A stretch of 59,543 nucleotides of DNA, taken from assembly GCA_963805825.1 (NCBI GenBank), contig CAWDVO010000027.1:1-59543 (forward strand), in the 5' to 3' direction. Source of the DNA: Candidatus Brocadiaceae bacterium (GTDB lineage Bacteria; Planctomycetota; Brocadiia; SM23-32). Shown here one piece after another: positions 7,605 through 8,972 of this stretch. Under the pieces are notes generated by a model. The model did no database searches. It was not told where the DNA came from and worked only from the letters and a program-made list of their open reading frames with translations. The position numbers and the translations under genes are program-made. Every line of letters begins with the position of its first letter. The first letter of the stretch is position 1.

Positions 7605-8633
7605 ATGACTGAGGAAGCCTCCAAACAAGGCGGACCGGCGGCCGTTGTGACCGGTGTCTGGACGGTCCGAGACCGGCTTGGCGCCGCGCTGGCGCGCTGC
7701 GCGGTGGGGCGCATGCACTACGCCGTGGCGCCCGGCCTCTACGCCATCGGCCGGCCGACGCCGGACTCACCCGTCTTCGTCTCCGCCAACTACAAGCTCA
7801 GCTTCGACCACCTGCGCCGCGCGCTCGCCGGCCGCGACGGCTGGATACTGGTGCTTGACACGAAGGGCATCAACGTCTGGTGCGCGGCGGGGAAGGGGAC
7901 GTTCGGCACCGAGGAGGTGGTGGCACGCGTCGAGGCGGTGGGGCTGGGCGACGTCGTCTCGCACCGCAAGCTGATCCTGCCGCAGCTCGGCGCGCCGGGC
8001 GTGAGCGCGCCGGAGGTGCGGAAACGGACGGGCTTCCACGTCGTCTACGGCCCCGTGCGGGCGGCCGACCTGCCCGCGTTCCTGGACGCGGAGATGCAGG
8101 CGACGCCCGAGATGCGGCGCGTGCGGTTCGGGCTGCGCGACCGGCTGGTGCTGGTGCCGGTGGAGGCGGTGCTGGGCGGGCGTTCGGCGCTGCTCGTCGC
8201 GCTCGGGTTCCTCGTGCTCGGCGGGCTGGGGCCGGGCGTGTGGGCGGTGGGGCGGATGCTAAGCGACGGCCTGCGCAGCGCGGTCCTCTTCCTCATCGCG
8301 TTCCTGGCCTCGGTGGTGCTCACCCCGGCGCTGCTGCCGTGGCTGCCGGGGCGGGCGTTCGCGCTGAAGGGCGCGTGGATCGGTGCGGCGCTCGACGCGG
8401 GGTTGGTCCTCTTCACCCGTGCGCACCCGGGCTACTTCGGCGGCCAAGTGTCGCTGGCCGGCTGGCTGCTCATCATCCCCGCGCTGGCCAGCTTCCTGGG
8501 CATGAACTTCACCGGCTCGTCCACCTACACCTCGCTCTCCGGCGTGCAGAAGGAGATGCGGACGGCCGTGCCGCTGCAGGCGGCCTGCGCGCTGGGCGGC
8601 GTCGCGTTCTGGTTGGTCGGGCGGTTTGTGTGA
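7605..8633 (+). CDS. hgcA: mercury methylation corrinoid protein HgcA
   Basis: The cap-helix signature GINVWCAAGKGTF (N(V/I)WCA(A/G)GK) is present. Flanking motifs GRMHYAVAPGLYAIGRP, SPVFVSANYKLSFD, ILVLDTKG, LILPQLGAPGV, YGPVRAADLP and a C-terminal multi-helix transmembrane domain all match HgcA. Confidence 0.9.
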   Translation: MTEEASKQGGPAAVVTGVWTVRDRLGAALARCAVGRMHYAVAPGLYAIGRPTPDSPVFVSANYKLSFDHLRRALAGRDGWILVLDTKGINVWCAAGKGTFGTEEVVARVEAVGLGDVVSHRKLILPQLGAPGVSAPEVRKRTGFHVVYGPVRAADLPAFLDAEMQATPEMRRVRFGLRDRLVLVPVEAVLGGRSALLVALGFLVLGGLGPGVWAVGRMLSDGLRSAVLFLIAFLASVVLTPALLPWLPGRAFALKGAWIGAALDAGLVLFTRAHPGYFGGQVSLAGWLLIIPALASFLGMNFTGSSTYTSLSGVQKEMRTAVPLQAACALGGVAFWLVGRFV

Positions 8634-8675
8634 CGCCGCCCGTTCGGGCATAATGGGGGTGGAGGAGATGAGACG

Positions 8676-8972
8676 ATGACCGAGCTGAGATACCTGCGCG
8701 ACGTGGTGACGCTGTCCCTGGACACCGAGGTCTGCATCGGCTGCGGGCAGTGCATCGACGTCTGCCCGCACGGCGTCTTTGCGCTGGGGGCCCGCAAGGC
8801 CGCCATCGTCGACCGCGACGCCTGCATGGAGTGCGGCGCCTGCGCGCGCAACTGCCCGGTCGAGGCCATCCACGTCCGCACCGGCGTCGGCTGCGCCAGC
8901 GCCGTCATCACCGGCGCCCTGCGCGGCACCGAACCCACCTGCGACTGCTCCGGCGGCGGCTGCTGCGGCTGA
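8676..8972 (+). CDS. hgcB: mercury methylation ferredoxin HgcB (2x[4Fe-4S])
   Basis: 98 aa. Two CxxCxxCxxxCP motifs (CIGCGQCIDVCP, CMECGACARNCP) plus a C-terminal Cys cluster CDCSGGGCCG. Located 43 bp downstream of hgcA. Confidence 0.9.
   Translation: MTELRYLRDVVTLSLDTEVCIGCGQCIDVCPHGVFALGARKAAIVDRDACMECGACARNCPVEAIHVRTGVGCASAVITGALRGTEPTCDCSGGGCCG

Follow-up and report, generated by a model that had tools for sequence, protein, structure and literature searches.

Does the planctomycete contig CAWDVO010000027.1 (assembly GCA_963805825.1; 59,543 nt, analyzed over its full length and hereafter called the window) encode the capacity to produce methylmercury? No genetic marker of microbial methylmercury production other than the gene pair hgcAB is known, and the original prediction, which was made from the letters of this DNA without database searches, had placed a complete hgcAB pair at positions 7605-8972. 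Profile hidden Markov models scoring above their curated cutoffs, the diagnostic motifs, the modeled fold, and the transmembrane (TM) topology all bear out that assignment. We regard the pair as very probably an intact, orthologous hgcAB operon of an uncultured member of the Planctomycetota, and as a predicted methylator that organism earns the label because the pair is complete and consists of two separate genes. By its sequence, the pair predicts an ability of the organism to make methylmercury. What the analysis establishes is that the two proteins belong to their families, that the pair is complete, with the key residues and the fold in place, that it is under purifying selection, and that its synteny is conserved with a few relatives; we infer, in addition, that the cofactor is loaded and that the organism would actually methylate Hg under anoxic conditions.

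The first gene, hgcA (7605..8633, + strand), is complete from ATG to TGA and encodes a protein of 342 aa; its ATG at 7605 is the earliest start codon downstream of an in-frame stop, and the orthologues P0002 and P0003 are likewise 342 aa in length. HgcA matches the NCBIfam equivalog model NF040863 (HgcA_corrinoid) with 438.9 bits (cutoff, 275; E=1e-131) over profile positions 4-324 of 325, and GINVWCAAGKGTF is present in the directly read translation of this open reading frame (ORF; 7605..8633, +). The cap-helix motif NVWCAAGK, also read directly from the sequence, occupies residues 90-97 (7872..7895, +) and contains, as had been anticipated, the conserved cysteine, here Cys93 (7881-7883, +), the predicted Co-thiolate ligand. 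The motif conforms to the consensus N(V/I)WC(A/S)(A/G/S)GK, whose conserved Cys is Cys93 in strain ND132 as well, and is one of six high-stringency HgcA motifs (PMC10087281). Across 111 homologues, N90, V91, W92, and C93 show no variation, and HgcA departs from the columns conserved at ≥85% at five positions only (A13, W19, P136, W213, and F335), none of which is Cys93 or another residue of the cap-helix motif; position 136 is His in 94% of homologues and Pro in the closest members of the clade.

The architecture of HgcA is that of a soluble corrinoid-binding domain followed by a membrane domain. The former (7719..8099, +; approximately residues 39-165) resembles the CFeSP (corrinoid iron-sulfur protein) large subunit by Pfam, phmmer, and Foldseek: CdhD (PF03599), the sole Pfam domain detected in HgcA, covers residues 39-156 with 45.6 bits, and phmmer matches residues 39-164 to the CFeSP entries 2h9a, 4c1n, and 4djd. 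The C-terminal membrane domain (8145..8630, +) has five TM helices at approximately residues 184-205, 215-242, 252-273, 281-305, and 311-341; Kyte-Doolittle hydropathy yields five hydrophobic segments within residues 181-342, and these agree with the five long C-terminal helices assigned by DSSP to an AlphaFold2 model (pLDDT, 91.1; pTM, 0.86). This model was built from an alignment of 111 homologues, since an alignment of 10 sequences left the corrinoid domain poor (pLDDT, 62). When the model was compared with the Protein Data Bank (PDB) by Foldseek, the top match was the integrative model of ND132 HgcAB (9a0b_A; 45% identity, E=3.5e-20), followed by the CFeSP corrinoid domains 4c1n, 2ycl, and 2h9a (root mean square deviation [rmsd], ~2.0 Å over ~124 residues); a sequence search returned no experimental HgcA structure.

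The second gene, hgcB (8676..8972, +), encodes a complete 2x[4Fe-4S] ferredoxin of 98 aa that matches NCBIfam model NF040864 (HgcB_ferredoxin) from end to end (133.6 bits; cutoff, 99; E=1.6e-39; profile positions 1-93 of 93), as well as the Pfam domains Fer4 and Fer4_7. Both CxxCxxCxxxCP motifs that had been named in the original prediction are in place, the first, CIGCGQCIDVCP, at 8733..8768 (+; C20, C23, C26, C30, and P31) and the second, CMECGACARNCP, at 8823..8858 (+; C50, C53, C56, C60, and P61). The second includes CMECGA (residues 50-55) and thus the sequence C(M/I)ECGA, which, in an HgcB encoded on the same contig as hgcA, is the published high-stringency criterion for this protein (PMC10087281); HgcB here has it on hgcA's own contig, so that the high-stringency signatures of both proteins, the cap-helix motif of HgcA and C(M/I)ECGA of HgcB, are present. 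Downstream of the clusters lie the strictly conserved Cys73 (8892..8894, +), which is essential in ND132 (PMC7305189), and the Cys-rich tail CDCSGGGCCG (8940..8969, +; C89, C91, C96, and C97), which had also been noted beforehand and is identical in three relatives (L001, L002, and L083, introduced below). HgcB therefore has the conserved Cys73 together with at least one C-terminal Cys, the residues in question being Cys 73, 89, 91, 96, and 97. The spacer between the two genes (8634..8675, +) measures 42 nt, one fewer than first reported, and contains a GGAGGAG Shine-Dalgarno sequence at 8661-8667; hgcA and hgcB are probably co-transcribed, with which the lack of any terminator-like site within 7300-9500 is consistent.

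Relative to the experimentally characterized reference, Pseudodesulfovibrio mercurii (Desulfovibrio desulfuricans) ND132, the two-gene architecture is alike, as are the corrinoid domain, the cap helix with Cys93, and the five TM helices of HgcA. HgcB shares the cysteines at positions 20, 23, 26, 30, 50, 53, 56, 60, and 73, in numbering identical up to residue 73, as well as a C-terminal Cys pair, but its tail has four Cys (two in ND132). HgcA identity is only ~45%, the host is a planctomycete whereas ND132 is a sulfate reducer, and no ArsR-like gene adjoins the pair, in contrast to Desulfovibrio and Pseudodesulfovibrio, which cotranscribe one with hgcA (PMC7438021).

If the planctomycete proteins work as does the ND132 enzyme, from the literature on which the following scheme is taken, HgcA would be a corrinoid protein anchored in the membrane by its five C-terminal helices, its CFeSP-like N-terminal domain would hold cobalamin with the cap-helix Cys93 as the lower axial (Co-S) ligand, and the two [4Fe-4S] clusters of HgcB would give the low-potential electrons by which Co(I) is regenerated. 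Methyl-tetrahydrofolate has long been assumed to be the methyl donor to Co(I). Work on the purified complex suggests that Co(I) would be methylated by S-adenosylmethionine to CH3-Co(III) (PMC11588087). From CH3-Co(III), the methyl group would pass to Hg(II) to form methylmercury, with Cys73 and the flexible Cys-rich tail of HgcB as the proposed carriers that bring Hg(II) in and take CH3Hg+ away (PMC7305189). In ND132 HgcB, residues 20/23/26/60 ligate cluster A and residues 50/53/56/30 cluster B, and neither Cys73 nor the C-terminal Cys pair (Cys94/Cys95) can be dispensed with (PMC7305189).

The pair is not confined to this one assembly. Several independent assemblies contain HgcA homologues that are 75-85% identical; the next tier lies at ~65%, and its nearest named sources include Planctomycetota. 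The gene order phosphofructokinase (PFK; -), hgcA, hgcB, Zn_ribbon_2 (-) recurs in four relatives from different samples: L001 (ENA ERZ25039549), L002 (GCA_964390035.1), L083 (ERZ25039500), and L084 (JGI 3300062816). Upstream, L001, L002, and L083 also have the genes for Peptidase_M55, EF-G, HSP20, NifU, and a 561-aa protein, and an FG-GAP gene lies downstream in L002, L083, and L084; L085, a relative at 75% identity, has a radical-SAM gene upstream in place of PFK. The number of synonymous substitutions per site (dS) for hgcA against L001, L002, and L084 is 0.31-0.43, overlapping the 0.15-0.48 of the flanking genes, and that for hgcB is lower, at 0.12-0.35, while the ratio of nonsynonymous to synonymous rates (dN/dS) is 0.27-0.36 for hgcA, 0.25-0.41 for hgcB, and 0.02-0.33 for the neighbors, absolute values being inflated by an extreme GC bias at third codon positions (even EF-G is at ~0.2). 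We set aside as unreliable the hgcA dN/dS of 0.42 for L083, in which there are indels. Our reading of these sequence comparisons is that purifying selection probably acts on hgcAB and that the pair is passed on, within the clade, together with its flanks.

The alternative that survives best, which we nonetheless hold to be unlikely, is that these are genuine hgcAB orthologues in an organism that performs no meaningful Hg methylation: the genes might be silent or barely expressed, a corrinoid supply might be wanting, oxygen might poison the proteins in the organism's niche, or the native function might be some other methyl transfer. Several points weigh against a working methylation operon. We know of no Planctomycetota isolate that methylates Hg, and no planctomycete methylator has been validated; nor do we know of any organism for which the native physiological role of HgcAB has been established. 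Most methylators validated so far belong to the Desulfobacterota, the Firmicutes, or the methanogens. A scan of positions 7300-9500 for sigma-70 promoters and intrinsic terminators found none, and a Pfam scan of 33 ORFs of the window gave no match to ArsR/HTH_5 or MerR, in line with the original prediction, so that no promoter, ArsR-like regulator, or terminator was recognized for hgcAB; an adjoining ArsR-like regulator of the Desulfovibrio/Pseudodesulfovibrio type is thus absent, a trait that does not define hgcAB. The region directly upstream of hgcA differs among close relatives and in that sense is unstable, and the dN/dS values of hgcAB lie at the upper end of the range for neighboring genes. 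Two of those neighbors, PFK and HSP20, carry assembly indels, which implies imperfect single-base accuracy; despite these, both hgc frames are intact, with end-to-end profile matches. The aerobic/facultative lifestyle suggested in the original prediction goes beyond what the window can support: the sole hint is a 2-oxoacid dehydrogenase E2 gene, which points to a metabolism that is not strictly anaerobic, and the window ORFs gave no sign of an oxidase or of any other gene for respiration. HgcAB is, moreover, reported to be very weakly expressed and oxygen sensitive even in model methylators (PMC11588087). Set against an inactive pair are the purifying selection on hgcAB, a synteny kept in five assemblies, the retention of the residues that mutagenesis found to be required in ND132 (HgcA Cys93, HgcB Cys73, and the C-terminal Cys pair), and the finding that isolates whose HgcA has the cap-helix domain are able to methylate Hg (PMC10087281).

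Much less probable is a foreign origin, in which the pair would have entered this sequence as an assembly or binning chimera or would sit on a recently acquired island. The phylogeny of HgcAB is incongruent with species trees (PMC7438021), and the assembly is error-prone, but the pair lies within one contiguous 59.5-kb contig bearing ribosomal-protein genes, RpoA, IF-2, NusA, and EF-G; GC content is flat across the hgc region, at ~0.68; the flanks are the same in L001, L002, L083, and L084, from different samples; and the dS of hgcAB resembles that of the flanks. Because the gene block recurs and dS is flank-like, we take the pair to be inherited with its surroundings and neither an island nor an artifact, and we reject acquisition by horizontal gene transfer on the grounds of flat GC, conserved synteny, and flank-like dS.

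It is next to impossible that the first ORF encodes, instead of HgcA, either a Wood-Ljungdahl pathway corrinoid protein of the CFeSP/CdhD type or an HgcAB-like paralogue of the fused kind: CdhD is, it is true, the only domain found by Pfam, and JGI names HgcA homologues "acetyl-CoA decarbonylase/synthase complex subunit gamma," but the model for that subunit (NF003195) scores 74.5 bits (cutoff, 306) over residues 39-165 only, the fused HgcAB-like model (NF043039) scores 209 bits (cutoff, 285), HgcA has neither the Fe-S domain nor the TIM barrel of the CFeSP N terminus and aligns to CFeSP chain residues ~318-440 only, the last ~125 residues of that protein, the five TM helices and Cys93 are present, the latter missing in CFeSP, and hgcB is a separate gene not fused to hgcA, so that sub-cutoff scores, domain content, Cys93, and gene separation effectively refute both identities. 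What HgcA has in common with the CFeSP large subunit (AcsC/CdhE; PDB 2YCL, 4C1N, and 4DJD) is a homologous corrinoid-binding Rossmann-like domain (27-30% identity; rmsd, ~2 Å over ~124 residues); CFeSP differs in that an N-terminal [4Fe-4S] domain and a TIM barrel are present and a TM domain and the cap-helix Cys are missing, and it methylates the Ni of acetyl-CoA synthase, not Hg (PMC7305189). Fused HgcAB-like proteins (e.g., that of Pyrococcus furiosus; NF043039) share the cap-helix, TM, and ferredoxin modules, whereas the window has two separate genes and falls below the cutoff of the fused model; isolates with fused HgcAB did not methylate Hg in culture (PMC10087281).

With the pair identified as hgcAB, its host can be considered. 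Because the nearest named relatives of the window's RpoA are "Candidatus Brocadiia bacterium" metagenome-assembled genomes (MAGs; 73% identity), followed by other Planctomycetota (63-66%), the host is a planctomycete, which agrees with the earlier guess of a Planctomycetes-Verrucomicrobia-Chlamydiae (PVC)-type lineage; identity to the RpoA of Brocadia itself is 56%, and the class assignment is tentative. In a rough neighbor-joining tree, the HgcA proteins of the window, L001, and L002 stand next to those of Planctomycetia/Pirellulaceae, a position consistent with the RpoA-based assignment. The contig is core chromosome, with genes for EF-G, RpoA, IF-2, NusA, RbfA, RodA/FtsW, HisG, TrpAB, NAD synthase, two sulfatases, and an FG-GAP protein, and we read the short plus-strand ORFs at ~27-43 kb as a ribosomal-protein operon.

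The nearest named homologues in a protein search are the HgcA proteins of other Planctomycetota MAGs (Planctomycetia, Pirellulales, Thermoguttaceae, and Phycisphaerales; 59-65% identity), and by tblastn against genome contigs, planctomycete hgcA loci are 53-62% identical to the window HgcA. In the alignment, those other planctomycete proteins carry a Cys-rich N-terminal extension (~45 aa, with CC/CCC motifs) that is absent from the clade of the window (P0001-P0005 and P0010; window 7605-7740), and the clade has its own W19 and W213, with P136 in its closest members.

The genes that flank the pair are likewise peculiar to the clade. Divergent from hgcA lies the PFK gene (6143-7460, -), whose start at 7460 is 144 nt upstream of hgcA. 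The divergent PFK of the original prediction thus stands, but its designation as pyrophosphate (PPi)-dependent is less secure, since the best NCBIfam match, a PPi-PFK subfamily model, is below its cutoff (228.7 versus 273 bits). Judged by published specificity determinants, GGNDS and KTVDND would be motifs of the PPi type. The gene is split by a single extra base near 6596 ("GCCGGCGTCC" versus "GCGGGC-TCG" in L001, L002, and L084, whose intact orthologues have 437-439 aa), and because the assemblies look indel-prone, an assembly error is more likely than a pseudogene. Convergent on hgcB is a Zn_ribbon_2 gene (PF12674; 8977..9228, -; 44.9 bits), for which 83 aa, as in its orthologues, is the most likely extent. 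Only 4 nt separate its stop from that of hgcB, exactly as first described, which leaves no room for a terminator. Its position is kept in L001, L002, L083, and L084, and neither it nor PFK occurs as a flank at any of 80 other hgcA loci. When PFK, Zn_ribbon_2, the 561-aa protein, and FG-GAP were searched by tblastn against 82 hgcA loci from multiple phyla, only L001 and L002, the two close relatives in that set, matched; the notion that such genes form a general functional module with hgcAB was accordingly rejected (0/80 distant loci) in favor of a clade-specific synteny. The conserved protein of 560-561 aa (window 4255-5937, +) keeps its synteny with hgcAB in both L001 and L002, at 83% identity; it is apparently split in L083 and matches nothing in Pfam or NCBIfam.

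Between PFK and hgcA, an intergenic block at 7461-7590 (~130 nt, adjoining the PFK start) is 88-96% identical among the window, L083, L001, and L002, and its core elements ACTATAATCCAAC and CCCGCAAATGTC are retained even in the more distant L084. On the minus strand, its sequence suggests that it comprises the PFK promoter (TTGCGG-17-TATAGT) and 5' untranslated region. A perfectly conserved TATAAT at ~7541-7546 was considered as a plus-strand promoter and rejected, as it has no usable -35 element and the minus-strand PFK reading fits better. Closer to hgcA, the sequence is a variable spot in this clade: L001 (~9747-10008, +) and L002 (7593-7967, +) have, directly upstream of hgcA, a small ORF with a TM helix and a CxxC...CPYCG zinc ribbon that matches no Pfam or NCBIfam model, an unrelated insert (~320 bp) takes this place in L083, and the window (7590-7604) and L084 have neither insert nor ORF. 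Rfam searches at the gathering threshold detected no cobalamin or other riboswitch and no known RNA in the window, L001, or L002, except for a tRNA in L001. Two adjacent genes with weak XRE-type helix-turn-helix (HTH) matches (HTH_31/HTH_3) lie at 17319-18378 (+) and also in L001 at 14256-15081; they are the only transcription-factor-like genes seen within 10 kb of hgcAB, and nothing ties them to hgc.

Elsewhere in the window, several genes deviate from their expected reading frames or profiles. The HSP20 gene (3407-3840, +) changes frame near 3664-3700 relative to the 145-aa orthologues in L001 and L002, and only parts of their Pfam profiles are matched by the second sulfatase (15866-17386, -) and by the E2 acyltransferase (47299-48477, +), both of which may be frameshifted. 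Split genes also occur in the relatives (many in L083; RibD_C in L001), which points to indel-prone, possibly long-read assemblies for the window, L083, and L001. At 21000-23000, GC content dips to 0.62 (~0.68 elsewhere), coinciding with an ORF for a 416-aa protein with an HNH_2 endonuclease domain (21769-23019, -), and this segment may be a small foreign insertion.

The original prediction had presented the pair as an addition to a little-characterized set of methylators, a claim of novelty that is overstated: hgc-positive MAGs from the PVC group and the Planctomycetota are already published and well documented (PMC7438021; PMC10469668) and are included in databases of the Hg-MATE type, NCBI labels close homologues [quoted passage not shown] and the exact HgcA sequence of the window is already public in NCBI and ENA. 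Thousands of genomes, this phylum included, are already known to carry the gene family, to which the pair adds one more routine member; it brings no conceptual change, and its correct name would be assigned by standard annotation pipelines. Each confirmed carrier of hgcAB nevertheless improves the maps of potential producers of this neurotoxin, and the pair can serve as a reference for assigning environmental hgcA reads and as a candidate planctomycete HgcAB for heterologous testing. A broader idea, to which we attach only a slim chance, is that a high-GC (~68%), sulfatase-bearing clade affiliated with "Ca. Brocadiia" stably inherits hgcAB in a housekeeping neighborhood (EF-G, HSP20, NifU, and PFK) and constitutes a methylator guild of its own. 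Should the clade prove to consist of facultative aerobes of soils, peat, or sediments, it would represent a distinct, unrecognized guild of polysaccharide-degrading methylators, marked by an HgcA without the Cys-rich N-terminal extension of other planctomycetes and by freedom from ArsR-type control.

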